Numbered from the stretch's first letter, positions 1-14,141 are shown. The stretch: DNA of 64,000 nucleotides from Bacteroidales bacterium (GCA_035913795.1 JAMIIA010000174.1:50325-114324), one strand, 5' to 3'. Numbers and translations: made by a program. Notes: generated by a model not told the origin, from the letters alone.

Positions 1-432
1 GGGAATATTTGCACATTGCTTCGCCCGGGTAAAATTACAATCGATGAAATAAAAAATGCCTTACCCGGCTTATTTGTTTTCGATACGCATAAATCGGAAA
101 AATTAATTGCCCCCGGATTATTAAAAAGCCACTATTCGCCCAATAAACCCTTGTATTTATATTCAAACCAGTCCACACAGCTACCCGTTAATTCGGGTCT
201 GATTTTACATAGCCTGAAAAACGAAATCCCTCAAAGTGAAAGAGTAATTTTTACTTCCAAAAACAATAACCTCCTCGAAATTGCAGCCAATCTTTTCTCC
301 TCGCTTCATGCCATGGAAGACGATGAGCAGGTAAAGCAAATTTTTATTGAACCTGTTTTGGAAGAAGGCTTGGGAATAGCCATAATGGATAGAATAAAGA
401 AAGCGGTGTATAAATACGAATCAAGAAAATAG
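1..432 (+). CDS. sua5: Threonylcarbamoyl-AMP synthase Sua5/TsaC, C-terminal SUA5 domain (5'-partial)
   Basis: Frame is open from base 1. APGLLKSHYSP and LFSSLH...EEGLGIAIMDRIKKA match the SUA5 C-terminal domain. Confidence 0.85.
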   Translation, partial: GNICTLLRPGKITIDEIKNALPGLFVFDTHKSEKLIAPGLLKSHYSPNKPLYLYSNQSTQLPVNSGLILHSLKNEIPQSERVIFTSKNNNLLEIAANLFSSLHAMEDDEQVKQIFIEPVLEEGLGIAIMDRIKKAVYKYESRK

Positions 433-820
433 TTTTTTTTTGATTCAGCCAAAGAGAACTAAAACCCCTGGGTCCAGGGTACAAACTAATTCGGTTGATT
501 ATCTTGACTCTAGCTTGAAATAGTTGTAAATTTAACGTGTGTTAATTACTGAATCTGCAGCATTCTAATGCTTTGCACCAAACAGTTTTGGTTGACGAAA
601 ACTGATGTGTACGATAGTTAAAAATGCTTCCTGGTCAATGTTCACCGGAAGAAATCCGGATAGGCTTTTCCGCTGCCAAAAAGTGCCTGTAATTGGTCGA
701 TACAACCTCATTTCCTTCGAGGGCAGGATTTAGGCATCTTACACCCTTTAGGCCAATACCTTCCCTTAAGAATAATAGTTTGGCAAACGCCTGATATCCG
801 ACTTTAATGCCTACTCCAAT

Positions 821-2065
821 ATGAAAACCTTGCAGCTTGTTTTTACAGCCCTTTCGTTTTTTTTGTGGAATATAAGCATCACTGCACAGCCGGTTTGGCA
901 TCTGCAGGATTGTCCGATTGACGAGGAACTTATTTCGGTTTCCTTTATCGATACCCTGAATGGCTGGGTTATCAGCGAAAACGGAGTAGTGCTTCGCACC
1001 CATGATGGCGGTAAGAATTGGGAAATTCAGAACGAATTAACTAATCTTTTCGCCACTAAAATTTTCTTCATCAATGAGAACATTGGCTGGATTTCCGGTT
1101 ACCGTTCAGACAGGGAATACGGTAGGCTTTTATACACCAACGATTCTGGCGAAAACTGGACAAGCCGCGTCGACAGCAATAGAATTCTTTACAACGATGT
1201 ATTTTTTGCCAACGAAAATATTGGTTGGGCAGCAGGCTATCACAATTTGGACGATACCATCAATTATATTATGGTAACCGAAGATGGCGGAAACCACTGG
1301 AAGCGGCAAATGGAAGATCACTTTCTGAGCGGAGCCATGCTCAATATCAGTTTCCGCGATTCGCTGGATGGAAATATCTGTGGAACGGGTGGTTTTTTTC
1401 TTCTTACTTCTGACATGGGCGAACACTGGTGGATGAGCATTTTTCCCTGGGGAATTGACCTTAAGGATGTGTACAATGCAGGAGATCGGTATGGTTGCAT
1501 GGTAGGTTCTGGCGGTCTGGTTTATTTTACAAAAGATAAGTGGGCAAATTCAACAGATTATGAGCTACCCTTTGATGATACCCTAAGAGCAATTTCAGGC
1601 CTTGAGAATTTAAAATTCTGGGCAGTTGGCGATAATGGATCCATTGTTTACATGGCTTATTCGCCTATTTTGTATATGCTTATTACGAGCGACCAAAGTG
1701 TCGATACCCTTGGGCGCCTGAACGATGTGGTTGCTATAGATGATAACCATGTTTGGGCAGTGGGGGAGACGGGCACTATTTTGCATTTTGGAATTAAAAG
1801 CACTGGTGAACCCATAGGTTTGAAAGATTTGCCAGAATTGGCTTATGCTGTTTTTCCTAACCCAACCGAAAATTGGTTGTTTATTGAAGGCAATTTCTTC
1901 GGCTTTGGCGAGGCTGCATTTTTTAATATGGAAGGAAAACTAGTATATAAGGTTAAGCTTTCTATTCCGGGCTCTTTAGACATAAGCCAGCTTAAAAGTG
2001 GCATGTATATAATGGAATTGCGAAATGACCAGAATAATTTTTATGATTTAATAATTAAGAAATAG
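821..2065 (+). CDS. YCF48/BNR-repeat beta-propeller protein with T9SS C-terminal domain
   Basis: Signal peptide; repeats of F.....GW...T.DGG..W; C-terminal VFPNP...LKSGMYIMEL. Confidence 0.85.
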   Translation: MKTLQLVFTALSFFLWNISITAQPVWHLQDCPIDEELISVSFIDTLNGWVISENGVVLRTHDGGKNWEIQNELTNLFATKIFFINENIGWISGYRSDREYGRLLYTNDSGENWTSRVDSNRILYNDVFFANENIGWAAGYHNLDDTINYIMVTEDGGNHWKRQMEDHFLSGAMLNISFRDSLDGNICGTGGFFLLTSDMGEHWWMSIFPWGIDLKDVYNAGDRYGCMVGSGGLVYFTKDKWANSTDYELPFDDTLRAISGLENLKFWAVGDNGSIVYMAYSPILYMLITSDQSVDTLGRLNDVVAIDDNHVWAVGETGTILHFGIKSTGEPIGLKDLPELAYAVFPNPTENWLFIEGNFFGFGEAAFFNMEGKLVYKVKLSIPGSLDISQLKSGMYIMELRNDQNNFYDLIIKK

Positions 2066-2165
2066 GGCACTGAGATTTTGCAGGCTGGTTGATGTAATTG
2101 AGCTGGAATAGCTGTTATTTTTTTCCTTGCTTGTGTTTGCATGTTTTGGATGAACATTCGGAAGA

Positions 2166-2468
2166 TCAAATCGAAATGGTGATATTGACGAATTTGTCGA
2201 TATCAAGGTCTTCTTCTCGCCTTATCTCAGCTTTGAGGGGCAATAGATAAGTATTCATTTTCGTGTCAAACCAAAGGTTTGTTTCCCACTCGTTTGTATT
2301 AATTTTTGCACTTGTTTTTAAACGTCCCCAACCTTCTTCTTGCCATTTTAGATTTTCTCTAATCTCTTTTGAAATTTCTGGCGGAAGCGAAACAAAATAC
2401 CAACCTCCTTTTGGGGACGAATATCTCCAAATGGTGGCAGTGAATTGATATTCTATTTTACCCTTCAT
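2166..2468 (-). CDS. DUF1905-family protein
   Basis: FTATIW..GGWYFVSLP, GWGRLKTSAKIN..WETNLW, YLLPLKAEIR. Start set at MKGKIEY; the ORF track extends to 2519. Confidence 0.75.
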   Translation of the reverse strand: MKGKIEYQFTATIWRYSSPKGGWYFVSLPPEISKEIRENLKWQEEGWGRLKTSAKINTNEWETNLWFDTKMNTYLLPLKAEIRREEDLDIDKFVNITISI

Positions 2469-2682
2469 AATCGGAACCGTTTTGTTTTTTTCGATGGCAA
2501 CCAAAGGTTTTTTGTGCAATACTTGCGGTGCTAGTGCGCAGTACTATGCCATAAATATACTCCAATTTTTAGCGCTGAAAAAGTCGGGCAAGAAAATGCC
2601 CTGTTAATGATGGATTGTTTCGCATGCAATCGCTCGAACAACCGTGAATAAAGGAAAGTAAGCTGGCATAAACTCCAATGGT

Positions 2683-2700
2683 TTATACACCGTGTTGGGT
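2683..2700 (-). repeat. attC-like half-site (R''/L'' arm) downstream of the zf-TFIIB gene
   Basis: Minus strand reads ACCCAAC-acggt-GTATAA, the same AAC-5 nt-GTATAA layout as the site at 5120-5251. No well-matching partner arm is adjacent. Confidence 0.45.
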
Positions 2701-2778
2701 TTTTTGCTTAATTTCTGGCTCGGGTAGTTTAAAAGCTTCTATTCTTTAACTTAAGAAGATGTAACCCATGCCTTTGTA

Positions 2779-3024
2779 TTAAAAATCAAACAACTCCCCC
2801 AATAATCCTTTTTTCTTTTTGTAACGATAGTCATTATCTTTTGGATATTGCTGTTTATTCGCATAACTATCATGTGGCATATTCGTATTTTGTGAAGAAC
2901 GTTCAATAATTTTATCAAGTTCTCCGCGGTCGAGCCATACACCACGACAATCAGGGCAGTAGTCAATTTCTATTCCACTACGGTCCGTCATTACCAGGTT
3001 AACATTACAATTTGGACATTTCAT
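2779..3024 (-). CDS. zf-TFIIB-type zinc-ribbon protein
   Basis: MKCPNC...IEIDYCPDCRGVWLDRGELDKII with C-terminal KKKKGLLGELFDF. Confidence 0.85.
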   Translation of the reverse strand: MKCPNCNVNLVMTDRSGIEIDYCPDCRGVWLDRGELDKIIERSSQNTNMPHDSYANKQQYPKDNDYRYKKKKGLLGELFDF

Positions 3025-3112
3025 TGTTTTAATCCTTTCTTAATTAGTAATCTTTTTTAGGTCTCCAAAAATAGTGTTTGATTAGCATTTTTTTAGGCTT
3101 TCATAAAACTTT

Positions 3113-3235
3113 CCCACGGTATGATGTCATGCGGGGGATTGTGAAGTGATCACCTATCAGTTTACAAGATTTTTTTTTCGATATGTAAGGTCAGCAAACC
3201 GCTGAGTCCCTTTTGCTCGCTAGTATGAGTTAGCC
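3113..3235 (-). repeat. Degenerate or chimeric attC-like site downstream of hipT
   Basis: Minus strand has GGCTAAC 28 bp after the hipT stop. The plus-strand left arm ggtatgatgtcatgcgggggatt resembles ggtatgaggtcatggcggatt of the 5120 site. The two arms do not pair well and the terminal GTT is missing. Confidence 0.5.
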
Positions 3236-3262
3236 GCTGGCTTGTTTTTATGTAACTATTAT

Positions 3263-4198
3263 TTATTTTGGATTTAGTAATTCAATTCTCTTTGAGACTA
3301 GTTTTTTTAACAAGTCCCTTTGTTCAAAGGTTAAAAAAGAGTTATCAATCCACCAGTGAATTTTACCTGAATTGTCGGCAAAAGATTTGTAGCAGTGGTA
3401 TATTTGTTTCTCATTCAATAGCAAATTCGAACCTAAATTATCAAAGTCTTTTTTGGAAAGTTCATTTTTCTTTCCATTTAAATTCAAACTCATTTGCTCG
3501 GGTTCGTTCTTTATTGCAAGATAAGTGCTAACCAGGTCGTAAGCAGGACTAAGACTAAATGTACCGTCTTCTCTTTCAAGCATTGAAAAATTTTTCAAGT
3601 GCATATCTGCATTCCCTGTAATGAAACTAAACAGAACAAGTTGATAATACCGTAACATATCCAGACCTGGTTGAGTTGAAAATTGCCTTATAGTTTTGCC
3701 CGCTTTCTCATAACTTCCTCTGTATTTGTGCTCTGTGAGGCTTTCAGAGAGTTGACACAAATCTTCACTTGCTATTTTAGTTGTTTTGTTCCTGTCAAAC
3801 CGCCTTGTAATGTATGCAAGCCTTCCGCTTTTCATTCTTACCAAACCATGTGTCGCTACTTCTATTCCCAATTCTGCTGCAAGGTGCATACATAAGTCCT
3901 CATTTTCTGGCAATGAAATGTATGTTTCACTTTGTGGTTTGATAATGTAGTTGCTTTTATCATCCACAATGGTAAAGCGCATATTTTTCTTGCTTTCTTC
4001 TAACCACAAACTTAGCTTAGGTTGTACTCCGGTTATTGCATTGTTTGCTCCAACAATTCTTTTCGCGTAATCACTTAATTTTTTTTCATCTATATCAAGC
4101 TCTGGCATCTGTTTCAATCCAAAAATATTAGTGATACACCTAATGTGATAATCAACTTCATCTAATGTCAGGGGCTTATAGCAAAGTAAGCAGTTCAT
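3263..4198 (-). CDS. hipT: HipA-family kinase toxin lacking the N-terminal subdomain (HipT-like)
   Basis: Gly-rich loop AITGVQPKLS, YIIKP, ENE, RRFDR, GNADMHLKNFS and LSPAYDL. Third gene of a HTH/HipA-N/kinase trio. Confidence 0.85.
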   Translation of the reverse strand: MNCLLCYKPLTLDEVDYHIRCITNIFGLKQMPELDIDEKKLSDYAKRIVGANNAITGVQPKLSLWLEESKKNMRFTIVDDKSNYIIKPQSETYISLPENEDLCMHLAAELGIEVATHGLVRMKSGRLAYITRRFDRNKTTKIASEDLCQLSESLTEHKYRGSYEKAGKTIRQFSTQPGLDMLRYYQLVLFSFITGNADMHLKNFSMLEREDGTFSLSPAYDLVSTYLAIKNEPEQMSLNLNGKKNELSKKDFDNLGSNLLLNEKQIYHCYKSFADNSGKIHWWIDNSFLTFEQRDLLKKLVSKRIELLNPK

Positions 4199-4202
4199 GT
4201 AT

Positions 4203-4517
4203 TTAGCTTTTTAATATTGATATATCGCCAATACAATCTTTACAAAGTGTCAGCAGTAAACTCATCCTGTCTCTTGGGTTAAGTTTCCAATTATTGATGG
4301 CTATCTGTAATAACCATCCCTCTGGTATCAATCCGTCAAAAAAAGGCAGCATATTTTTGTCTGTAAAAACTTCAGAACGTAACGGTAAAGTCCTACTTAC
4401 TTCTCCATAAAGTGGATTTAGCAGGTAGTCATTATCATATTGAAAAAAATATCCATTTTCATCTTCCCATACTAGTCCTGCCATTTTATCTTTTTTATAA
4501 ACCAATCCTTTTTTCAT
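4203..4517 (-). CDS. hipS: Stand-alone HipA N-terminal domain protein (HipS-like antitoxin)
   Basis: YFFQYD..Y, VSRTLPL and LPFFDGLIPEGWL, which contains the conserved Trp. Confidence 0.85.
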   Translation of the reverse strand: MKKGLVYKKDKMAGLVWEDENGYFFQYDNDYLLNPLYGEVSRTLPLRSEVFTDKNMLPFFDGLIPEGWLLQIAINNWKLNPRDRMSLLLTLCKDCIGDISILKS

Positions 4518-4530
4518 ATAGAAACGTGTT

Positions 4531-4962
4531 TCACTGGTTTTCTATTGATATGATATCTGCATGATTTATTGTTTCCGTTAACCTTTCATCAGGCTTTTGC
4601 TGATATTGTATTGCATTATTGTTCGGAACAAATTTCCATGCAAAAATTTTATTTTCTTTTTTATCAATAATCTCTTTTATAATTATTCCATATCTAGTTA
4701 GCTTGTTGGCAAGAGTAATTTTCACACCTTTATTGAAATAATTCCAGAAAATGTCATAGGCATCAATCCGTTGTTTGTTTGGGGTTAATTGAAATCCAAA
4801 CAAGCGAAGCACTTGTTCTACTTTGTTTAATTGTAGTGTTTCTTTACCTTGCTCCAAGTCACGGATAAAGCGAACGCCAACTCCTGCTTTTAAAGCAAGT
4901 TCTTCTTGGGTAATGCCAAGCTTTTTTCTCTGAAACTTGATAAATGCTGATAAATTATTCAT
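4531..4962 (-). CDS. hipB: HipB/y4mF-type HTH regulator with an extra ~75-aa C-terminal domain
   Basis: RKKLGITQEELALKAGVGVRFIRDLEQGKETLQLNKVEQVL is a Cro/XRE HTH. First gene of the trio. Confidence 0.8.
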   Translation of the reverse strand: MNNLSAFIKFQRKKLGITQEELALKAGVGVRFIRDLEQGKETLQLNKVEQVLRLFGFQLTPNKQRIDAYDIFWNYFNKGVKITLANKLTRYGIIIKEIIDKKENKIFAWKFVPNNNAIQYQQKPDERLTETINHADIISIENQ

Positions 4963-4966
4963 TTTT

Positions 4967-5064
4967 TATACCTTAACGGGTACAAATATAAACATAAATA
5001 ATAAAATAAATCCGTTCGGGTATAAAGTGTTTTAATTTCACTAGTTTCGAACCTTACGGGTATA
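4967..5064 (-). promoter_or_regulatory. hipBST promoter with three 18-bp operator palindromes (consensus TATACCCG-NN-CGGGTATA)
   Basis: TATACCTTAACGGGTACA (4967), TAAATCCGTTCGGGTATA (5007), TCGAACCTTACGGGTATA (5047). Minus-strand -7 box TATATTTG at 4990-4983. Confidence 0.7.
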
Positions 5065-5119
5065 CTTTAAATAAGTATATTTAACACTCATTAGTTTCAA
5101 GTTACCGCAATCTAATTAG

Positions 5120-5251
5120 GCCTAACGGCAAGGCGGTATGAGGTCATGGCGGATTACAGGGCGAATACTTATAAGATTACACCAACTTTAAATGCGAGTA
5201 TCAACCTTTGCACCCTGAAACGCTCGACATGCCTTATACCGATTGTTAGCG
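5120..5251 (-). repeat. attC-like site (132 bp) downstream of the HEPN gene
   Basis: Minus strand: CGCTAAC aatcg GTATAAggcatg ... catgaccTCATAC cgccttgcc GTTAGGC. Imperfect dyad that begins 6 bp after the stop codon and ends in a perfect GTTRRRY. Confidence 0.7.
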
Positions 5252-5257
5252 GCTGAT

Positions 5258-5653
5258 TTAGTTTTTAGAATTAATCATTTTGATTAAAAGTGAATTGAAT
5301 TTCTCAACATTTTCTATCAGAGGGACAACATCATCTTCACTAAAATCAACGTAAACGGAATAATCACTTTCTTGTCTCCAGTCTATCAAACGAGAATATA
5401 ATTTACCATACTCGATATCAATCACATTTGTCTTAACGTATTGTTGAAGAAACTTAGTTTTTAATCCATCATGAGATTTTGCTGTAATACCGTCTTGAAA
5501 AAGAAGAGCATTTATCAGATGAAAACAAGAATAGTATAGTCTATTAACACATGACCGCCATCTCTTATTGTCGGCAAGTAACTGTGCATCTTGAAAAATC
5601 TCCTCAGATCTATCAAGTCGGTACTGAATATAATCCTCTTGCGAACCTATCAT
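5258..5653 (-). CDS. HEPN-domain protein (UPF0332/COG1895-like)
   Basis: A..L......RSCVNRLYYSCFH, KSHDG and WRQESDY. Overlaps the upstream MNT gene by 4 bp. Confidence 0.8.
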   Translation of the reverse strand: MIGSQEDYIQYRLDRSEEIFQDAQLLADNKRWRSCVNRLYYSCFHLINALLFQDGITAKSHDGLKTKFLQQYVKTNVIDIEYGKLYSRLIDWRQESDYSVYVDFSEDDVVPLIENVEKFNSLLIKMINSKN

Positions 5654-5973
5654 GATATCTTAACTCCTTCACGTTTAATATTCTGATATAGCGGAGTATA
5701 AATAAATCTTGATTCCCAATCATCCTTTGAGTAAACTAAAGTAGAAATTGGCTCACCAAGCTCCAACTCTAATTGAAACATCTCGTTCCGATATCTCTCT
5801 TCGACAGATCTATCATATTTTGGCCTATCTATCAGAATTAGCACATCCCAATCAGACTCATCTTTAGCTTGTCCAATTGCATGGGAGCCAAAAATAATCA
5901 CCTCAGCTTTAGGATCTTGATGCTTTATCCTCAAGCCTATCATCTTTGCAATATTTAATTCTCTCGCAGTCAT
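5650..5973 (-). CDS. Minimal nucleotidyltransferase (MNT) antitoxin
   Basis: GS-x10-DWD (FGSHAIGQAKDESDWD) and IKREGV at the C-terminus. Paired with the HEPN gene. Confidence 0.85.
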   Translation of the reverse strand: MTARELNIAKMIGLRIKHQDPKAEVIIFGSHAIGQAKDESDWDVLILIDRPKYDRSVEERYRNEMFQLELELGEPISTLVYSKDDWESRFIYTPLYQNIKREGVKIS

Positions 5974-6023
5974 TGTGTAAATATAATCTTATTATAAATA
6001 GTTCGCAATCCTGCCCCATTTGT

Positions 6024-6153
6024 TGCCAACGCCCCGCAGCTATGCCCTGTGCGGAATTAAAACCGGAATCTGTCCCGCCACCTGCTGATTTTATTAATGC
6101 AGGAAGCTGTTCTAATCCCACGGAAACCGCATTGGGTGTAGGTGCTGTTGTGC
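6024..6153 (-). repeat. attC-like site (130 bp) upstream of the MNT-HEPN cassette
   Basis: Minus strand: GCACAAC agcac CTACACccaatgcgg ... ccgcacaggGCATAG ctgcggggc GTTGGCA, an imperfect dyad. Confidence 0.65.
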
Positions 6154-6264
6154 TCCGTTTTTTTTCATTCAAGCGTCAAAATTCTTTATTAAATCCTGTC
6201 ACAAAAAGAAATCTACTAACTGGATTAGCTAGTAGATTTCAAATTTTTTTGATGTTTTTTCTTA

Positions 6265-6756
6265 CTAAAAATCTCTTGAAGCACAATTCAATGAAGAAGA
6301 ACGGAATTCAATTTTTTTAATATTCAATTTGTCTTTCAACAATTCATAGAATACTGTGCAAAACCATTCGCATGTTGAAGGGCCTGTACTTACTGCTACC
6401 CTACTTTCTGGAAAAGATTTAACCAATTCGTGGTTAAGAGCCTTGGCAGGTGCTCCATATCTATTAGTTGTACCTTTCATTCCTGTTTTCTCATATCCTT
6501 GCAACACTAAATCAAGTAAAGGGTCGCCTTCTTGAAAAATCGTTCCATGATGAAAATTGTCTGCAACTGCCCAAGCTAATTTTTGAGCTTCTTTTACAGG
6601 ATAAGCATAATTGCTTTTATCTAAATCTCCTTCGATTTCGATAGTTAAATATCCTGAGTGTCCGTGAAGATAACTTGCTTCTCCTGCATAATTCATAAAT
6701 CTGTGTGCATATTGGAAATCTAATTTCACAATAGACCTGTACTTGCCGTTTGACAT
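6265..6756 (-). CDS. QueD/6-pyruvoyl-tetrahydropterin-synthase-like T-fold protein with atypical active site
   Basis: FQYAHRF and YLHGHS give the three Zn-binding His; STCE aligns with PTSE. No Cys precedes HGH. Confidence 0.7.
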   Translation of the reverse strand: MSNGKYRSIVKLDFQYAHRFMNYAGEASYLHGHSGYLTIEIEGDLDKSNYAYPVKEAQKLAWAVADNFHHGTIFQEGDPLLDLVLQGYEKTGMKGTTNRYGAPAKALNHELVKSFPESRVAVSTGPSTCEWFCTVFYELLKDKLNIKKIEFRSSSLNCASRDF

Positions 6757-6789
6757 AATATAAACCTCCTATTTTTTAAAAGTGAATAA

Positions 6790-7215
6790 TTAGCATTTAT
6801 TAAAAGTGCCTCTAATTTGAAGAACTATATCTTCAATCTTAAATCCTTCTATATTTTTGTTTTTAAAATGATTATGTAATAATTCATCTAATTCTTCGTC
6901 CTTGTAATCCTCAATTAAATCGCATTCAGAGCAATACAAATGATGGTGATTTTCAATTATACCATCGTATCTCATAACATCTTTATCCGTAGTAACCTTT
7001 TTAATTAGTCCGTTTTCAACAAGTGTATCCAAAACTTTATATACTGTCCCCGTAGCAATATTTGGATGTGACTCTCTGATATACTCAATAATATTATCGG
7101 CAGTCGGATGATTGTTTAATTTATAAATAGCTTCAAGTATAACAACTCGCTGAGGGGTTATCTTTAATCCCTTTTCCGAAAATTTATTCCTTATATTCTC
7201 TATTAAAAACTTCAT
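6790..7215 (-). CDS. Fur-family transcriptional regulator (Fur/PerR-like)
   Basis: GLKITPQR, HPTAD, ATGTVYKVL, RYD and HHHLYCSEC. Confidence 0.9.
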   Translation of the reverse strand: MKFLIENIRNKFSEKGLKITPQRVVILEAIYKLNNHPTADNIIEYIRESHPNIATGTVYKVLDTLVENGLIKKVTTDKDVMRYDGIIENHHHLYCSECDLIEDYKDEELDELLHNHFKNKNIEGFKIEDIVLQIRGTFNKC

Positions 7216-7230
7216 TGAATATTTCCTTAT

Positions 7231-7261
7231 TGAGAATTATTCTCTCATGAGAGCAAATGTA
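7231..7261 (-). promoter_or_regulatory. Fur-box-like 7-1-7 repeat and -7 promoter box of the fur/queD-like operon
   Basis: TGAGAAT-T-ATTCTCT at 7231-7245; minus-strand TACATTTG at 7261-7254. Confidence 0.55.
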
Positions 7262-7597
7262 ATCTAAGTTTTTATATAATCCAATTTTTTATTGAAAATT
7301 TTGCTTTTTGATTTCGCTTCTATCAGGAACGCTGTCTTTTTTTAAAATGGAGCACAACTCAATAATATCAGCAACTTAAAAAAATAAACTACATTAGAAA
7401 ATGTGTTCCTACTATTATGCGGTTTCAGAGGAAGAATGCATTTTTTCCTAAATAAGAGGGATGCTTCAAAGGGTAGCATTTCAGAATGAGATGGGTAGTT
7501 TTTAGCACTGAATTTCGTTTAAATTAAAGAAAGAGAAACAGTGTTTCTATAAGTTATCCCACGCGAAAAGTAAAAATCGATCGTGAAAGATTTTGCA

Positions 7598-8236
7598 TCA
7601 CTGTAATTTCAAACGAGCAGCCATTGCCTCAAGGTCTGATTTCCCCCATGCATAGGGCAGGAATTCATCTTCCGGTTTTTTGGTGCTATTTTCTAATGCC
7701 AGTTGAATGCATTCGCCGGCTTGTTGCCTTCCATACTCTGAATCCGGATATTTTACAAGAAAATACTGCGCCAATACATAGTGAGCGCGGATATTTTTTT
7801 GATCGCCGGCGAGTGCATTTTTCAATAAAAAGGCGCAGTCAAGCAGGGCCACACTGTCGTTGGTATATTGGTATTGATGCAATTTCAGTTTTGCTTCGAG
7901 AATATTGAATTCAACCAAACCACTAAACTTTTTACCACTTTGATCGAAGAAGGTTTGTACTGCATTTAGAACAACGGGCTTATTATTTAAATTCGAGTCT
8001 TCGGTACACTTTAAGGAGGCATAGATATAATAATATGCTGACCTCCAGTCGTTAGGGTTTGTTTCGAATATTCTGTAGAAAAAAACCGAGCTTTGAGTGT
8101 AACCCTTAAGTGTATTCGCAGAATCCAACGATACTATTCCGGCATTTAATTGCTGGGCATACCAATCTTCGGTTTGCCCGCTCAAAGTGGTTTTTAAAAT
8201 CAACAGCAATAAGGCAGCTGTGAATATTTTATTCAT
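7598..8236 (-). CDS. Secreted helical (TPR-like) hypothetical protein
   Basis: Signal peptide MNKIFTAALLLLILK. ATG overlaps the stop region of the upstream gene. The ORF track starts it at 8257. Confidence 0.6.
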   Translation of the reverse strand: MNKIFTAALLLLILKTTLSGQTEDWYAQQLNAGIVSLDSANTLKGYTQSSVFFYRIFETNPNDWRSAYYYIYASLKCTEDSNLNNKPVVLNAVQTFFDQSGKKFSGLVEFNILEAKLKLHQYQYTNDSVALLDCAFLLKNALAGDQKNIRAHYVLAQYFLVKYPDSEYGRQQAGECIQLALENSTKKPEDEFLPYAWGKSDLEAMAARLKLQ

Positions 8237-10940
8237 GTGAAACAATAATTTTCTCATTTTTGGTAAAATCGTTGCTATTAAACTGAATAAAATAGATTCC
8301 GTCTTTTAAGCTTTGTTTTTTCAATCGAAAGCTTAACTCATGCTCGCCGGCTGCGATTGTTCCAGAATAAAAATCTTCCAACTTTTTACCATCAATGGTA
8401 TAAAGCGAAATTAAAACCTCCGATTGCGATTGAAGAAAGCAATGAACCGTAAAATTGTCAGAAACAAATGTCGGATAAATGTGCACCTGTTGCATATTGG
8501 CTTTGTTGTCGTCGATGCCGGTTTCCTCCTGAAAAAGGGCTAAAATTTGATCGTTTTTGTTAATCCTTAAACTATTGTTTGCAATGCTTTCAGATTTTAA
8601 GAACACACTTTCGTTCGATTTCCATTTATAAAATGGTTTATCGAAAGTGGAGGTATCATACGCATTTAGTGCAATATCGATGTTGCCAAAATAGGCAGCA
8701 TTCCAGGGCAAATTTGTAATCTGAAGCGAATTTACATCCAATGCAATGTTTTCTCGTGGTAAGGCGTCGAAGGTGATATTGTAGGGACCAGTGAGGTTGT
8801 AGCAGCTATCCAATTTGTTTTCTGCCCATGCACCGCATCTTCTTGTTACAAAATCTCTTAAGCGATCATAGTTTTTTTCCCATTCTTCATAGCTCCCGCC
8901 AGGCCAGCGTTCGTTATGCCGGTACATTTCGGGTGCAATTAACGCTTTAAGACTGTCGAGCTGGTGCAGCATATTTTCGCAGCTGAAAGTGGTATTGATT
9001 AAATCGATGTATCGCGAAATGTAATAATTATTAAACCCTGGGTTACCACGCAATTTATTGAGAATCTGAATATGCCTCTCCGGATCGGACCATTCGGTCA
9101 AATGATCGACGTTGCAAAAAGCTGCATTTGCTGAGGTGTCGGGTATTCCTGTGTAATTAATATAGAAGGCAAAAGAGGCATCGTTGTCCCAAAGAATATA
9201 GCCCCATTTTTTATGGTCCCCTTCTGGGTTAAGGCCTCTCCACCATCCTGTATTGTATACCAGCCAGTCGGATGACACAGAAATCGAGTGGCCAATTACA
9301 TAATCTGTTAAGCTTTCAACATCTAATTCAGCTGCTACTTTGTCGAAATTACTTTGGTTTGCCATCGAATGGCTGAAAATAAAATCGGTAAGCTCGTACC
9401 AATCTTCAAATGCCTGTTCACCTCCATATTCTGCCCAGGTATATCCCCAGGTTAAAAGGTATTGTATATCATATTTTCCCTGGTTGTAGTAATGCTCGGT
9501 ATAATCATGGTCATCGGGAATTTCTCTTATATCATATACTCCCCAGTAGTTGCCGTTTAAATAAACAACACATTTCGAGGCGGCCCTTACATCAAGTTTC
9601 ATATCTCCCTGCTTGCAAAGGTTTTGGAAATAGGCATCTCTAAGATGAGCGCTTCCCAAATTCGAAATGTTTTGTATGCCATCGGTAGTTGCAGGGTAGT
9701 TGTCGTCGCCGGAGGCACGTAATATGATGCGCTGAAAATTTTTCCTGTCGGAAAGGGTAAAGAGCTTTTCTTTTAACTCTTTGCTATACCCCATTTCGTC
9801 GCGGGCAACAAAATCGAGGCTTCGCTGATCGTTTACCCATGAATCCTGTCCATGCGAATTAAACTCACCATACGAATCGGCAGCTCTTGTTCCGCTGGTA
9901 TCGAAATATTCTATGGTTCCCCACGGACGGGCTTCTTTTAAGCCCATGGCCAAACTATCCAACAGGCTGCCGGAAATGGAAATTACAGGTAAGCTGTGAT
10001 TTTCGCTGATAAAATAAGTGCCGTATTGTATAAATCCAGGAAGAATAGTGGTGTCACTGTCTGCAATTATTGCTTTGAGAATGGTTGTCTTGTCAATGCT
10101 TACCGGCGCCGTATACACATAAGATTGTGTGCCAGGCTCTGAACCATCGACAGAATAATAAATGGTTTCATTCTCAGAAGCTGTGCCTGAAATACTCACT
10201 GCGATGGCACTGCTGTAAAATCCGGCATCGTGACTGAACTTGGGTTTGGGCGAATACTTTATAAACGATTTTTCGTTGCTGTTGGATTTTCCGGCGGTAG
10301 GATTTACAAACACACCCCAGTTTGATACTCCGTCATTTACCCTGCCATACGAACTACAGCCTTTTGTTTTTCGAATATCTATTGCATCAATCAGGTTGCC
10401 ATTCTTATCGGAAAGAAAAATGGTTTCTTTTTTGTCTTTGGTTTGGGTTAACCTAAAATTGGTATGAATGGTATCGTTTTCAATCAGATTTCTTCCACTG
10501 GCAAAAATTATTTTAAATCCTTTGGCAGGAATGGGGCTGCAGGAAGGTATCTGGTACTTGACAAGGTTGGTTTCCTTGTCGCTTAAGTAATAACCAGTTA
10601 TATCAATCGGTTCGTTGCCTGCATTGTATAATTCAATCCAATCTTCCAGTTTACCATAGTTATCGCGACAGGTAACGCAGGTGGAGTCTTCCATGGCATA
10701 CGACCAAACGTAAGGGATTGAATCCATGGTTGAAGAGTCGGCATTGAAAAAATCTTCTGTTTTTAAGTCCCAGATTATAGTCGTATCGTAATCATTCGAA
10801 TCATAAACCGGAAACCAAATTGTGTCATGCACTAAAACAACCCGCTTTATATTTGAACAGGAATACTCGTTAATGACAATTTGCGATTTTAGGTGGACTG
10901 AGATAAGGAAGAAAAGGAAAAGTAGAATTTTGTTTCTCAT
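8229..10940 (-). CDS. CotH-kinase-family protein with lamin-tail domain, Ig/CHB_HEX-like domain and T9SS domain
   Basis: IVINEY...DWIELYN (LTD); PKFSHDAGFY, IYYSVDGSEP; LNGNYWGVYDIRE, ILWDND (CotH); IYPT...GIYFI C-terminus. Confidence 0.85.
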   Translation of the reverse strand: MRNKILLFLFFLISVHLKSQIVINEYSCSNIKRVVLVHDTIWFPVYDSNDYDTTIIWDLKTEDFFNADSSTMDSIPYVWSYAMEDSTCVTCRDNYGKLEDWIELYNAGNEPIDITGYYLSDKETNLVKYQIPSCSPIPAKGFKIIFASGRNLIENDTIHTNFRLTQTKDKKETIFLSDKNGNLIDAIDIRKTKGCSSYGRVNDGVSNWGVFVNPTAGKSNSNEKSFIKYSPKPKFSHDAGFYSSAIAVSISGTASENETIYYSVDGSEPGTQSYVYTAPVSIDKTTILKAIIADSDTTILPGFIQYGTYFISENHSLPVISISGSLLDSLAMGLKEARPWGTIEYFDTSGTRAADSYGEFNSHGQDSWVNDQRSLDFVARDEMGYSKELKEKLFTLSDRKNFQRIILRASGDDNYPATTDGIQNISNLGSAHLRDAYFQNLCKQGDMKLDVRAASKCVVYLNGNYWGVYDIREIPDDHDYTEHYYNQGKYDIQYLLTWGYTWAEYGGEQAFEDWYELTDFIFSHSMANQSNFDKVAAELDVESLTDYVIGHSISVSSDWLVYNTGWWRGLNPEGDHKKWGYILWDNDASFAFYINYTGIPDTSANAAFCNVDHLTEWSDPERHIQILNKLRGNPGFNNYYISRYIDLINTTFSCENMLHQLDSLKALIAPEMYRHNERWPGGSYEEWEKNYDRLRDFVTRRCGAWAENKLDSCYNLTGPYNITFDALPRENIALDVNSLQITNLPWNAAYFGNIDIALNAYDTSTFDKPFYKWKSNESVFLKSESIANNSLRINKNDQILALFQEETGIDDNKANMQQVHIYPTFVSDNFTVHCFLQSQSEVLISLYTIDGKKLEDFYSGTIAAGEHELSFRLKKQSLKDGIYFIQFNSNDFTKNEKIIVSHE

Positions 10941-11276
10941 TTAAATAGGGTTATGCTTTTAGTAAGAATAGATGACTGAAACGAACAATGGTTGCGTTAA
11001 GGAGCGTTTTTTTTCAAAAGTATTGATTTTATAACAAAATAAACCCTGCCATTTTTTAGTAAGGCGGCACGATTTTAACCAAAGAATATTCGCGATCGAA
11101 TAGGCTTCAACATAAATATTTGTATTTTTCTGTACCCGGGCTTTGGGTGTTTAAGTAAGGTAAATCAGGCAGAAATACCATACTTGTGTATATGATTTTT
11201 ATTCTTGCATGCCAACAATTTCTGGCTTTAAGCTACCTTTATACAGCCAGCAGAAATTTTTCTGGGTTCAATAGGT

Positions 11277-14141
11277 ATGAAAAAGTTTTATCTGAAAATA
11301 ATACTTCCTACAATCCTCACCATTTTATTGTTTATTCTAACGATATTCTTAATCATTATCCCTCGTTTCCAGCAGAATATCATGAACGGAAAGCGGGAAA
11401 TGATACAAGAGCTTACCAACTCGGCGTGGAGCATACTGTCGGAGTTTGAAACCGACGAGCGAAATGGACTACTTACACGCGAAGAGGCCCAGAAAATTGC
11501 AATTTCGAGAATACAGTATTTACGCTATGGCGATGAAGGCAAAGATTATTTTTGGATAACCGATACCTTTCCAAATATGATCATGCATCCGTTCAGGTCC
11601 GACCTCAATGGGAAGGACTTATCGGATTTTACCGACCCGCATGGTAAGAGGTTATTTGTAGAATGTGTCGAAACAGTTAAAAAATCGGAACATGGTTATG
11701 TAAACTACATGTGGCAATGGAAAGACGACTCGCTCCACATTGTTCCAAAGTTATCGTATGTTAAAATTTTTAAACCCTGGAACTGGGTTGTTGGAACAGG
11801 TATTTATATCGAAGATGTAAAGAAAGAGATTTCGGCCCTTTCCAGAAAATTGCTTTGGATATCGGTTGGCATATCCGTATTAACGGCTTTGCTGCTATTT
11901 TATATTATCAAACAAAGTTTGAACATCGAACACAAACGAATTGAAGCCGAAAAGGATTTAAACGAATCGAAAGAAAAATACCGAACACTTGTAGAAGCAG
12001 CAACCGAAGGTTTGTTGATGCTTGTTGACAGTAAAATCAGCTTTGCCAATGCGGTATTGAGTAGAATGATTGGGTACGAAACAACTGAGCTTATTCACCG
12101 TTCGCTCGATGAAATTATCAGCGAGAACAACAATAAAGATATCATCGATATTTTCTTAAAGAATTCTGTAATTAAAGAGGGGCAATTTGAGCTAAATCTT
12201 AAAAAGAAAAGCGGTGGATTTGTAGAAGTGCTTGTTACCACATCAACCGCCAAATTCTTTGGTAACAGAGTGAATATATTTATTGTGAAAGACATCAGTA
12301 TCGATCGGGGTCAGACTTTTTCCAACCTCGATTATCAAAAGTTGATTGGCACTTTAAACCTGGGGTTTTTTAAAGTAAGAATCGATACAAAAGGTAAAAT
12401 TTTGTTTGCCAACGAAACAGCCATCCGCATTTTTGGATTTGAGAGCTTACACGAACTTTCCGATGTAAATATTCTAAAACTATTTACGGATCCAGAAGAA
12501 AGAAAAAACCTCAGAAAAAGTCTTTTGGCCGAAGGGTATATTAAAAATAAAATTCTTGCTATAAACTCTAAAAACAAAAACAGTTCAATTGTTGCCTTGT
12601 CGCTAGTAGTCGTTGAGAATGAAAATCCTGAGCATATGGTGTGTGATGGAATAATCGAAGACATTACACTAAAAGAAAATGAGAAAACACAGTATAATAA
12701 TCTCATTGCCGATTTAAAATCAACTAGTTTTTTACTGGAGCAAGCCATTAAAAATTACATTATCCCATTTTATTCAGTCGATTCCGATTCGACAATAGGT
12801 GAAGCAGTCAGGATTTTATCGAAACAAAATACCGATTGTTTATTGCTTACAAAAAATGAAAACGACTACATCGGAATAATTTCGAATAACGACATTCAAA
12901 AACGGGTGCTATCCTTAAAACTGAACCTCGAGAATCCTGTTTATTTAATTATGAGTTCCCCTATTGTTTATGTAGGTTGCGATACTCCTGTGATAGATGC
13001 AATTAACCTTTGTGAGGATAAAAAAATAAACCACCTGGTTGTAGTGGATGAAACAAATACCATTACAGGAATATTTAGTACCAAAGCAATCTATAAATAC
13101 TTCACCAACTCACTCTCTCTCTACATCGACAAGGCAGGTAAGGCAGAAACAAACGATGAATTAAGGCAATGCTATAAGGCACATCAGCTATTTATTAAAC
13201 CGCTAATAAACAGCGATATATTTATTAAACATATCACCAATCTTACCTCCTCCTTTTCCGATTCGGTGGTGAAAAGAATTATTGAATTATCGATTCATAA
13301 ACTTGGTAAGCCACCTGTTGATTTTTCTTTTATATGTCTCGGCAGCGAGGGTAGAAGGGAAGAAAGTTTATTTACCGACCAGGACAATGCCATCATTTAC
13401 GAAGATGTTCCGGCAGAAAAAGAAGCTTTGGTAAGCGAATATTTTATTCAACTGGGCGAAATGGTATGCAACTCATTAAACCATGTAGGTTATTCGTATT
13501 GCAAGGGCAATGTGATGGCAAAAAATCCGCAGTGGAACAAACCAATAAGTACCTGGGAAAAGTATTTTACTCACTGGATCATCACCCCTGAGCCACAGAA
13601 TCTGTTGGGTGCAATAATTTTCTTCGACTTCAGAACCGTATATGGCAGCGAAGAATTTGCAGACCGATTAAGGAAAATGATTCATACTTTGATTTCGCAG
13701 CAATCGGTTTTTTTGTACCATCTGGCTTTTAACAGCTTTAATACCAAAACTCAGAATATATCTGGTGGTAACATTTTATCGGATAGTAATGCAGAAATGC
13801 TGGATTTAAAAGGCAGCATTAATCACATTATCATGTTTGCACGGACCTATTCTCTTCAAAATAATATATGGGCCACAAACACAATCGAAAGGTTGGAGGC
13901 ATTAAAATCGAAGCACATTATTGAAAAGAAGACTGTCGATGAAATTATTTTCGTGTACAACTATTTAATGAAACTACGTTTCAAAAACCAGATTAAACTT
14001 TTGGATAACAACTTACCCTTATCGAATGTATTAAATACAAAGGGTTTGATTGATATCGAAATTTCTATTCTAAAAAAACTGCTGTCGCAACTACCAGCCT
14101 ATCAAAACAAACTCAGTATCGATTTTCGAATAAGCACTTAA
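11277..14141 (+). CDS. Membrane protein: TM-sCache_2-TM-PAS-PAS-CBS pair-DUF294 nucleotidyltransferase-DUF294_C
   Basis: YFWITD..MIMHP..DPHGK..VNYMW..PKLSY..PWNWVVGTGIY (Cache); YRTLVE..EG (PAS); IGIISNNDI (CBS); CLGSEGRREESLFTDQDNA and IFFDFR..YG (DUF294). Confidence 0.85.
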   Translation: MKKFYLKIILPTILTILLFILTIFLIIIPRFQQNIMNGKREMIQELTNSAWSILSEFETDERNGLLTREEAQKIAISRIQYLRYGDEGKDYFWITDTFPNMIMHPFRSDLNGKDLSDFTDPHGKRLFVECVETVKKSEHGYVNYMWQWKDDSLHIVPKLSYVKIFKPWNWVVGTGIYIEDVKKEISALSRKLLWISVGISVLTALLLFYIIKQSLNIEHKRIEAEKDLNESKEKYRTLVEAATEGLLMLVDSKISFANAVLSRMIGYETTELIHRSLDEIISENNNKDIIDIFLKNSVIKEGQFELNLKKKSGGFVEVLVTTSTAKFFGNRVNIFIVKDISIDRGQTFSNLDYQKLIGTLNLGFFKVRIDTKGKILFANETAIRIFGFESLHELSDVNILKLFTDPEERKNLRKSLLAEGYIKNKILAINSKNKNSSIVALSLVVVENENPEHMVCDGIIEDITLKENEKTQYNNLIADLKSTSFLLEQAIKNYIIPFYSVDSDSTIGEAVRILSKQNTDCLLLTKNENDYIGIISNNDIQKRVLSLKLNLENPVYLIMSSPIVYVGCDTPVIDAINLCEDKKINHLVVVDETNTITGIFSTKAIYKYFTNSLSLYIDKAGKAETNDELRQCYKAHQLFIKPLINSDIFIKHITNLTSSFSDSVVKRIIELSIHKLGKPPVDFSFICLGSEGRREESLFTDQDNAIIYEDVPAEKEALVSEYFIQLGEMVCNSLNHVGYSYCKGNVMAKNPQWNKPISTWEKYFTHWIITPEPQNLLGAIIFFDFRTVYGSEEFADRLRKMIHTLISQQSVFLYHLAFNSFNTKTQNISGGNILSDSNAEMLDLKGSINHIIMFARTYSLQNNIWATNTIERLEALKSKHIIEKKTVDEIIFVYNYLMKLRFKNQIKLLDNNLPLSNVLNTKGLIDIEISILKKLLSQLPAYQNKLSIDFRIST

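Follow-up and report, generated by a model that had tools for sequence, protein, structure and literature searches.

A probable integrase-less cassette array of an integron-like system in a Bacteroidales genome

Chromosomal integrons and CALINs, such as the Vibrio cholerae superintegron (VCR), are arrays of short co-oriented open reading frames (ORFs); after each ORF comes a hairpin site of about 130 nt with AAC...GTT at its ends. The sites are alike within a lineage and their bottom strand folds better. The largest array spans hundreds of kb with repeated cassettes and abundant toxin-antitoxin (TA) cassettes, small integrase-less clusters lie elsewhere, and the cassette content varies between close relatives. 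All of these features recur in the system described here, which we met in a stretch of 64,000 nucleotides (the window) from a Bacteroidales bacterium (GCA_035913795.1, JAMIIA010000174.1:50325-114324). The part of the window from 2.6 to 6.2 kb is probably a satellite array of cassettes, without an integrase, that belongs to an integron-like system specific to the lineage.

The system differs from the Vibrio-type integrons in its enzyme, its sites and its layout. It has no IntI, and the linked recombinase, which carries an additional domain at its N-terminus, lacks the insertion that contains the I2 helix. A bulge of 3-4 nt on the AAC arm replaces the two-sided spacer, with no fixed extrahelical G or T opposite. 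The recombinase gene reads in the cassette direction, with the attI-like site on its 3' side, and some genomes have several paralogues of it inside arrays. In the 'inverted-integrase' integrons of Treponema denticola, Chlorobi and Planctomycetes the integrase also reads in the cassette direction, and their hosts likewise include members of the FCB group. Their integrases, however, keep the IntI additional domain and pass the IntI models, whereas here the insertion is absent and the protein fails TIGR02249.

Genes and sites in the window

Seven genes lie at 2166-5973, all on the minus strand and all supported by Pfam matches (Table 1), which confirms the seven small same-strand genes of the initial annotation. 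That annotation had called the block AT-rich; its GC content is indeed lower than elsewhere, but only mildly so (0.29-0.39 vs 0.41-0.46). It had also counted the DUF1905 gene as an array member. This gene is present at the same place in a relative of the same genus (G004) with 81% amino acid identity, and we therefore read it as conserved flank and not as a cassette. The sites part three units, the MNT/HEPN cassette, the HipBST cassette and the zinc-ribbon gene.

Table 1. Features of the array and its flanks (window positions)
Feature	Position	Strand	Evidence or remark
DUF1905 gene	2166..2519	-	Pfam PF08922; likely true start ATG at 2468
Remnant D, 3' arm (TATAC...TGTTG) of a lost site	2676..2700	+	arm match to C109:672-832
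Zn_ribbon_TFIIB small gene	2779..3024	-	Pfam PF13453; cassette-like unit, own site is remnant D
Site C, degenerate attC-like site of the HipBST cassette	3098..3239	+	R1 model 29.4-29.5 bits
hipT, HipA C-terminal kinase-domain toxin	3263..4198	-	Pfam PF07804 (HipA_C), E 7e-48
hipS, HipA N-terminal domain as stand-alone protein	4203..4517	-	Pfam PF13657 (Couple_hipA), E 2e-21
hipB, HTH antitoxin/repressor	4531..4962	-	Pfam PF01381 (HTH_3)
HipBST control region, cassette-internal	4963..5118	-	repeats D4 and I3
Site A, intact attC-like site of the MNT/HEPN cassette	5119..5255	+ (folding 'bottom' strand)	R1 133 bits
HEPN-domain protein, toxin partner of MNT	5258..5653	-	Pfam PF05168
MNT (minimal nucleotidyltransferase), NTP_transf_2	5650..5973	-	Pfam PF01909
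Site B, intact attC-like site, diverged sequence, same architecture	6023..6157	+	R1 89 bits
Terminator-like hairpin with T-runs	6208..6240		inverted repeat I5, 14-nt arms 93% complementary

The genes hipB, hipS and hipT follow one another in this order, with gaps of 13 and 4 nt, and the three-gene order and the domains point to a HipBST TA system. The control region contains three copies of the operator-like motif CCKTWCGGGTATA and a Bacteroidota-type -7 box (TATATTTG, 4990 to 4983, minus strand); it may be the HipBST promoter region. The module is also found in another species (G034), where HipT is 77%, HipS 90% and HipB 84% identical at the amino acid level and the boundaries fall at sites. 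The control region is kept between the two up to about position 5118 and not beyond, and the site body is absent from the G034 module.

The MNT and HEPN genes overlap by 4 nt with HEPN downstream, an arrangement that suggests an MNT/HEPN TA system. Neighbouring cassettes contain further TA families, namely PIN, PemK (twice), Gp49, UPF0175/DUF3368, DUF4160 and HTH. With their own control regions, the TA cassettes probably stabilise the array. As a separate observation, made by eye, the HEPN protein reads RQESDY at the place where Rx4-6H is expected.

Sites A and B are long imperfect hairpins of about 135 nt on the plus strand, bounded by YAACG...TGTTR. In site A the AAC lies at 5124-5126 and the GTT at 5245-5247, with the predicted AA|C crossover between 5125 and 5126. 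Its hairpin reaches -19.5 kcal/mol on the plus strand, compared with -16.6 on the minus strand, and relatives of 82-85% identity occur in the same genome (on C45, C150 and C91) and in G004. Site B has its AAC at 6028-6030 and its GTT at 6147-6149, with the crossover predicted between 6029 and 6030; the hairpin (-21.5 kcal/mol, z -2.5) keeps its pairs through changes on both sides. The MNT/HEPN cassette (5126-6029) has its upstream end at site B. This site follows not a stop codon but the hairpin at 6208..6240, which sits between the PTPS/Fur operon and site B and resembles a terminator in sequence.

Of the four sites, the remaining two have decayed. Site C (AAC 3098-3100, GTT 3229-3231) has kept its 5' arm and centre, the latter 81% identical to sites of the G004 array; the 3' arm is broken, the boxes read AAAAC-T in place of YAAC-G and A-GTT in place of T-GTT, and the fold lacks a long stem. 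Remnant D gave no foldable hairpin on folding and no match to the covariance model. It is the decayed distal end of the array; its bases 2676-2700 agree at 22 of 25 positions with the 3' arm of C109:672-832, another site of the same genome.

The inverted repeats bounded by AAC...GTT that were first proposed thus comprise two intact sites (A and B) and one degenerate site (C), and the half-site proposed at 2683-2700 is a real remnant. Three sites had been placed 6-78 bp past a stop codon; measured from the stop to the model end the distance is 2 nt for site A, 23 nt for C, 107 nt for B and about 80 nt for D. The CALIN-like reading of the block is supported, with sites at ORF 3' ends in one orientation, TA cassettes and no tyrosine recombinase matched on the window's 127-kb contig (C174). 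With at least two sites and no integrase nearby the block is a CALIN if its sites count as attC-like.

A family of hairpin sites and its spread

A covariance model (R1) was built from the sites, as had been suggested, and scanned over the window's own genome (G000), where it matched 32 copies. The stop codon of a co-oriented ORF lies at -30 to +15 nt from the site 3' end in 22 of these 32, compared with 2.4% of random positions (binomial P ~1e-28), so that placement relative to stop codons is not random. The layout at gene 3' ends, with one fixed orientation and a stop within 15 nt (22/32), was likewise borne out.

The hairpin forms on the strand antisense to the genes. It has a closing box, in which TTGCYAAC pairs with GTTRGCAA, and a conserved G.T pair. 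On the AAC arm 3-4 nt bulge out, and the stem, about 20 bp long, contains a conserved TATG/TATA box. Across the family the AAC arm has 3-5 unpaired nt and the opposite arm 0-1, and the adjoining bases covary as pairs. Single-base bulges vary by subfamily, being either a T on the AAC arm or a G opposite, within TAT-G-ACC. In 26 sites 86% of stem cells are paired, compared with 67% after shuffling and 35-48% after sliding, and 21 of 25 stem pairs have compensatory changes; alignments fitted to a covariance model lean toward the model structure, and none of 500 shuffles matched the observed pairing or covariation. The plus (antisense) strand gives the more stable fold in 130 of 149 sites (P 2e-21), and there are 562 G.T wobbles compared with 50 A.C. 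YAAC and GTTR are invariant in all 150 family sites.

The sites share with attC their length (128-139 nt, within the attC range of 57-141 bp), their position 3' of a co-oriented ORF, the better-folding bottom strand (130/149) and the boxes RYYYAAC...GTTRRRY, which appear as GCCTAAC...GTTAGCG in site A and TGCCAAC...GTTGTGC in site B. Canonical attC sites also have two or three extrahelical bases at fixed spacing on the arm opposite AAC, with a G in L'' and, 6 bp beyond it, a T, and their R and L boxes are parted in both arms by an unpaired central spacer of 5-6 nt (PMC5027507). Neither is seen in this family: no extrahelical base opposite AAC is conserved across it, and the unpaired spacer of 5-6 nt per arm is missing. 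A search of Rfam gave no match, and the searchable literature yielded no published account of these sites.

Sites of the family are spread across the order, with covariance model matches in 29 of the 31 related genomes. In G004 alone the sites number at least 150 over 275 kb, 148 of them co-oriented, with a median spacing of 904 nt and repeated cassette sizes; ORFs in this array cover 190 kb on the strand opposite to the sites and 27 kb on the other. Judged from these sequences, the array in the window is one part of an integron-like system that extends through this genome and across its order in Bacteroidota.

Gene order was compared between the relatives, and the array locus differs at the cassette level from the orthologous locus in G004. 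At that locus both flanks are conserved, the interior is different and there are two sites of its own; DNA homology ends at window position 2468. The zinc-ribbon gene has an 80%-identical copy at an unrelated locus in G004. Cassette bodies common to G000 and the G004 array have their ends at sites.

The linked recombinase and its attI-like region

A profile search of the contigs of the window's own genome identified a candidate recombinase at C109:3268-4335. Its score with the NCBIfam XerA model NF040815 is 233.8 bits, above the cut-off of 220. With the IntI model TIGR02249 it reaches 216.9 bits, below the cut-off of 265, and aligns in two pieces with model positions 180-239 skipped. Residues 180-230 of VchIntIA have no counterpart in it, and the IntI-specific additional domain around patch III is absent. 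The IntI insertion has been held essential for attC recombination (PMC8138268, PMC4792948). An additional domain of about 75 amino acids stands at the N-terminus, and the closest solved structures are XerA (5HXY, 4A8E), followed by VchIntIA. In its XerA model match and closest structures the protein is like XerA/XerC/XerD-dif recombination and the elements that exploit Xer; it is, however, additional to the housekeeping Xer-like genes, has the N-terminal extension, and the sites linked to it are tens to hundreds of hairpins that bound gene cassettes, not a single dif.

The recombinase recurs beside or inside arrays, co-oriented with the cassettes, and some genomes have several paralogues inside arrays. 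On C109 the gene is followed by the attI-like region and then by three sites. All seven paralogues in G007 have co-oriented sites within 10 kb, and the same arrangement of recombinase and sites is found in G019, G011, G017 and MAG JTS-AC171. The contig breaks off shortly downstream of the recombinase gene in about 11 draft genomes. In G004 an RND efflux operon and a gap of 100 N lie between the recombinase and the giant array, so that adjacency there relies on circularity.

Downstream of the recombinase, homology between the two species G000 and G004 stops exactly at AAC (GTT as read from the bottom strand), as would be expected of an attI crossover, and the two have different first cassettes. 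A motif TATA-N5-6-GTTRNNNGCAA, defined post hoc, was searched in 15 loci and occurs in full in 5 and as its core in 8, compared with 0.08 and 0.77 in shuffled sequence.

It is unlikely that the window contains an ordinary CALIN of a canonical integron, with true attC sites made and moved by a classical IntI, since lost, not sampled or acting from another cell, and the XerA-like recombinase as a bystander. Boxes, length, bottom-strand bias and placement 3' of ORFs all fit attC, CALINs are commonly without IntI (PMC4889954, PMC8618304), and one MAG of the same genus (G018) encodes a canonical IntI (422 bits). The contig with the G018 IntI is, however, without family sites, and that MAG is 5% contaminated. 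No canonical IntI was found in the window's own 99.7%-complete genome, in G004 with its at least 150 sites or in G007, and 30 of 31 relatives have none above cut-off. The bulge on the AAC arm, the lack of fixed extrahelical bases on the opposite arm and the repeated, co-oriented linkage of an insertion-less recombinase to the sites also argue against it.

We consider the system non-canonical because the unpaired geometry of the sites differs and the recombinase lacks the IntI insertion. The first attribution to integrons therefore stands for the integrase-less cluster of attC-like sites, but not for the site geometry and the enzyme. The proposal of a recombinase encoded elsewhere has gained a candidate on C109, although one without the insertion, and we infer that this XerA-type tyrosine recombinase is the mobilising enzyme.

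Proposed mechanism and remaining alternatives

In the integron-like system each cassette comprises a single gene or operon and, after it, a site of about 135 nt. The C109 recombinase, without the IntI insertion, would cut at AA|C, and its substrate is predicted to be folded single-stranded DNA. Recombination of two neighbouring sites would excise cassettes as circles, which could be reinserted at the attI-like site about 200 nt downstream of the recombinase gene, or at other sites. The MNT/HEPN cassette (5126-6029) should be excisable because it is flanked by two intact sites. The HipBST cassette (3100-5125) and the zinc-ribbon unit are probably fixed because their sites have decayed.

The same elements and recombinase might instead engage in a conventional double-stranded Xer/dif-like reaction, in which the hairpin is no more than two inverted binding arms. 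The XerA architecture of the enzyme agrees with this, removal of the I2 helix shifts IntI toward double-strand substrates (PMC4792948), and the attI-like site is presumably duplex. We hold this reaction to be as improbable as the ordinary CALIN: compensatory changes span the stem of about 20 bp, well past any binding arm, the strong excess of G.T over A.C favours one folded strand, and only when folded does the site have the conserved bulge.

Slightly less likely still are non-mobile structured repeats, either REP/BIME-like elements dispersed by a Y1 (RAYT) transposase, bidirectional terminators or antisense small RNA genes, the 'cassettes' being ordinary genes. REPs too are repeated intergenic palindromes just past stop codons, Y1_Tnp genes occur in G000, G004 and G007, and a G.U-rich fold on the antisense strand would suit an antisense RNA as well; however, no Y1 gene adjoins an array, Rfam has no match for the site, the mRNA-sense strand folds less well, evidence against a role as 3'-UTR or terminator, and the sites are four times longer than REPs and have the invariant AAC/GTT at the hairpin base (150/150). 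They lie in co-oriented arrays that bound exchangeable genes, with 148 in one orientation and repeated cassette sizes in G004 and cassette bodies common to species that end at sites, and it is a tyrosine recombinase, not Y1 transposase genes, that is tightly linked to them, with homology downstream of it breaking exactly at AAC.

Sites and cassette units of the window

The initial annotation described the block at 2515-6153 as an integrase-less (CALIN-like) cassette array with two toxin-antitoxin (TA) systems, and this reading is supported; the array is real. All seven genes were confirmed on the minus strand, each with the Pfam domain attributed to it. The inverted repeats are genuine, and sites A and B fold as long imperfect hairpins. 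Folding of both strands shows the plus strand to be the more stable at both sites, with -19.5 versus -16.6 kcal/mol for site A and -21.5 versus -19.4 kcal/mol for site B. The degenerate site C keeps a 5' arm and centre like those of site A, its 3' arm is broken and no hairpin fold was obtained for it. The half-site, D, is a remnant, identical at 22 of 25 positions to the 3' arm belonging to another site of the source genome, G000. A search of window positions 1-12000 with R1, a covariance model of the site family, found no further site with filters off, and an Rfam scan of the same region gave no relevant family.

attC-like sites and cassette units of the window; unit boundaries assume crossover between AA and C of the AAC
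Feature	Positions	AAC	GTT	Remarks
Site A	5119-5255	5124-5126	5245-5247	intact
Site B	6023-6157	6028-6030	6147-6149	intact
Site C	3098-3239			degenerate
Site D	2676-2700			3'-arm remnant
MNT/HEPN cassette	5126-6029			intact site at each side
HipBST cassette	3100-5125			own operator repeats and TATATTTG box; own site C decayed
Zinc-ribbon unit				terminates in remnant D

Gene order was compared with G004, a genome of the same genus. Both flanks of the locus are kept and the interior is different. The left flank in G004 comprises a Sua5-like gene, a 414-aa BNR/T9SS protein and DUF1905, the right flank a 954-aa sensor, with 78-87% amino-acid identity. DUF1905 had been counted as a member of the array, it belongs instead to the conserved flank. 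Window positions 2469-11270 are wholly different in G004, which has two co-oriented sites at that locus. A locus in the related genome G034 matches the HipBST module (3230-5116) at 80% identity. This homology starts on the GTT side of site C and stops a few nucleotides short of the AAC of site A; the G034 locus is without a site body. Elsewhere in G004 there is a copy of the zinc-ribbon gene with 80% identity. Site B adjoins the terminator of a PTPS-like/Fur operon and there is no further site upstream of it, which places the array at one border of a variable island of 8.7 kb. For annotation, the HipBST and MNT/HEPN loci count as cassette cargo of the variable island and not as core genes.

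Some other features of the region were noted. The operon formed by the PTPS/QueD-like and Fur-family genes (6265-7215) is part of the island, which the orthologous locus of G004 lacks, and the operon ends in a hairpin (6208-6240) with T-runs on both sides. The HEPN protein (5258-5653) has RQESDY in place of the RNase motif Rx4-6H, the histidine is seemingly missing. Identity with G004 is about 75% in the 390-nt intergenic region at 433-820 that precedes the BNR/T9SS gene; the region is as conserved as the flanking genes and so may contain a regulatory element or small RNA. A mini-site at 529-551 was rejected as a chance match: only the R box matched (E 0.38), and AACG is absent from the conserved G004 counterpart of this intergenic region.

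The site family in G000 and related genomes

Copies of site A, about 85% identical, are found on three other contigs of G000. R1 was built from five sites and used in every site search; with it, 32 sites were found on 17 contigs of G000, many of them at contig ends, and as the model is biased to the G000 subfamily divergent sites are probably undercounted. At 22 of the 32 sites an opposite-strand ORF ends between -30 and +15 nt from the 3' end of the site, compared with 2.4% of random positions (P about 1e-28). In an alignment of 26 sites, 86% of stem cells are paired; shuffling lowers this to 67% and sliding to 35-48%. Of 25 pairs, 21 show compensatory changes. Cassettes beside other sites of G000 are rich in TA families.

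The family is present in 29 of 31 related genomes, representing 11 of the 13 genera of the order. The single contig of G004 contains at least 150 sites at 3,682,247-3,956,919, of which 148 lie on one strand. Their median spacing is 904 nt, and certain cassette lengths are repeated, about 572 nt in 22 cases and about 704 nt in 11. ORFs occupy 190 kb on the strand opposite the sites and 27 kb on the strand of the sites. This anatomy is that of a sedentary chromosomal integron. Cassette bodies of G000 recur in the G004 array and end at sites: the alignment of an S41-peptidase cassette between the two genomes begins at the GTT end of one site and stops where the next site starts with AAC, and one cassette from G000 contig C97 is present twice in G004.

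The consensus of 150 G004 sites is NNSSY-AAC-G-(3-4 nt)-stem(..TATG..GGGATT)...(CCC..TATA..)-T-GTT-R-N5-CWG, and AACG and TGTT are invariant among these sites from one relative. At 130 of 149 sites the gene-antisense strand forms the more stable fold (P 2e-21), and the consensus pairs include 562 G.T wobbles versus 50 A.C. These two biases indicate that the folded form is selected on the bottom strand, as in attC, which argues against a hairpin at the 3' end of an mRNA. The canonical attC bottom strand has a 5-6-nt unpaired spacer in both arms and extrahelical bases opposite the AAC arm at fixed spacing (PMC5027507). The present sites resemble attC in boxes, length, strand bias and position and differ in unpaired architecture: what is conserved among the unpaired positions is a bulge of 3-4 nt in the AAC arm, beside a conserved G.T pair, and single-base bulges vary by subfamily, none being fixed.

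Two observations concern G000 contig C45. The site at C45:184788-184923 (L009:13789-13924) shares 89% identity over 125 nt with a site (L021:13047-13171) in the MAG 'Bacteroidia bacterium JTS-AC171', whose linked recombinase has only 41% identity. There is no flanking homology around these sites, so site subfamilies cross taxa independently of cargo. An unusually large 'cassette' interval of about 5 kb, C45:185116-190242, has four ORFs. A HATPase-like protein of 747 aa and a receiver-like one of 365 aa are recognisable by eye among their products, and the interval may represent a defence system between two sites.

A recombinase beside the sites

Integron surveys pick integrases by their additional domain (PMC2426708, PMC4889954). 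Canonical IntI is absent from G000 (99.7% complete), in which every match to the IntI model TIGR02249 skips model positions 180-239. Among the 31 related genomes only G018 has it, and G004 and G007 have none. The G018 integrase (C116:651-1589, locus L135) is full length and scores 422 bits against TIGR02249. G018 is a same-genus MAG with 5% contamination, and its 9.6-kb IntI contig is without sites of this family; the gene could represent contamination or a co-resident classical integron.

The recombinase had been predicted to be encoded elsewhere, and the search for a tyrosine recombinase linked to the sites found one beside them on another contig of G000, C109. This gene (C109:3268-4335, 355 aa) is also the best TIGR02249 match in the genome. 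Its 216.9 bits against that IntI model fall short of the cut-off of 265, and its 233.8 bits against the NCBIfam XerA model exceed the cut-off of 220. Only five of its residues correspond to residues 180-230 of the canonical integrase VchIntIA (PDB 2A3V), the XerA alignment is continuous, and the predicted structure is nearest to XerA, then VchIntIA. An additional N-terminal domain of about 75 aa is predicted as beta-beta-alpha-beta-beta-alpha (pLDDT 83). Profile searches of Pfam and PDB gave nothing for this domain. The top PDB structures in a fold search were SMARCAL1 HARP and the XPB damage-recognition domain (E 0.2, TM 0.43), a weak resemblance between a predicted fold and these structure-specific DNA-binding domains that serves as a lead only.

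The co-oriented order on C109 is recombinase, a spacer of about 200 nt, a 183-aa ORF, a site, the S41-peptidase ORF, a site and a third site. All seven recombinase paralogues of G007 have co-oriented sites within 10 kb; one heads an array and five of 274 aa lie inside arrays with sites on both sides. The same relative orientation is seen in G019, G011, G017 and two contigs of JTS-AC171, where the distance from the gene to the downstream sites is 0.02-4 kb. About 11 draft genomes have a contig end 0.1-1.5 kb from the 3' end of the recombinase gene, as expected where a repeat array comes next. The G004 orthologue (771-1838) is 95% identical, and 640 nt downstream of it a site is cut by the contig start.

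The region of the recombinase gene is 85% identical in G000 and G004, beginning upstream of the gene and extending some 200 nt beyond its stop. The homology breaks exactly at an AAC (C109 3068-3070 in G000, 568-570 in G004), an attI-like junction after which the first cassettes are unrelated. This is the crossover position expected if cassettes insert beside the recombinase gene. The motif TATA-N5-6-GTTRNNNGCAA, defined post hoc, occurs downstream of 5-8 of 15 recombinase genes versus 0.08-0.77 in shuffled sequence.

The short 274-aa paralogues, which are without the N-terminal domain (G007 L117, L118, L120, L121 and L123; G017 L124), resemble ordinary cassette genes in having a site close by on either side. 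Also in G017, a site begins 18 nt past a recombinase stop. The G004 recombinase was considered as the head of the giant array; this is weakened by 100 N and a fragmented RND efflux operon, which lie at the other contig end before the array. The operon (OEP, MFP, AcrB; C1:3960001-3966474, L096) is broken into many short ORFs, which together with the terminal 100 N suggests indel errors and an unresolved gap in the 'single-contig' assembly.

Readings of the arrays and wider occurrence

The window array is apparently part of an undescribed integron variant with a non-IntI recombinase, whose activity we infer. On balance we favour the reading that Bacteroidota have a widespread integron class of their own, with folded single-stranded AAC/GTT sites and a XerA-type enzyme without the I2 helix (the IntI insertion). 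This enzyme would recombine the single-stranded hairpins with their bulged AAC arm, and its N-terminal domain may replace the I2 helix and could read the hairpin. The MNT/HEPN cassette of the window would be a still-mobile unit of the class. A canonical CALIN is improbable, given the missing IntI, the different site geometry and the linkage of a non-IntI recombinase to the sites. It is similarly doubtful that the same enzyme recombines the sites as double strands, as this leaves the long covarying stem and the strand asymmetry unexplained. Least probable are REP/RAYT-like repeats, terminators or antisense RNA genes, against which stand the invariant AAC and GTT, the co-oriented arrays, homology at the level of cassettes, the homology break at the AAC, no Y1 genes near the arrays and no Rfam match.

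No description of these arrays was found in the open-access full-text literature. Surveys show Bacteroidota nearly empty of integrons (PMC9024848; bioRxiv 10.1101/2024.07.02.601686), and the IntI insertion is viewed as the innovation that enabled recombination of folded single-stranded attC (PMC4792948). One classification noted 'integron-like' recombinases with a non-conserved insertion and gave no function (PMC8138268). If a separate Bacteroidota class is correct, the insertion is dispensable for cassette capture and surveys keyed on it missed a whole phylum. If the arrays are active, cassette capture arose twice or is older than the insertion, and a large stock of mobile genes for TA, defence and niche functions in an abundant phylum has been left out of the count. 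G000 provides what a direct test needs: the recombinase, intact sites about 135 nt long and an attI-like site.

Distant homologues of the recombinase from Kangiella and Polyangia were considered as true IntIs; all 50-odd have a Xer-like K-to-H spacing of 64-72 aa and are thus uninformative on closeness to IntI. A homologue with 41% identity, N-terminal domain included, is present on a plasmid of Chryseobacterium oryzae (NZ_CP094530.1, 38318-39361), where it is followed by one gene and then IS91, with no convincing site. Plasmid-borne homologues are present in cultured Bacteroidota, and PGAP annotates some as 'site-specific tyrosine recombinase/integron integrase'.
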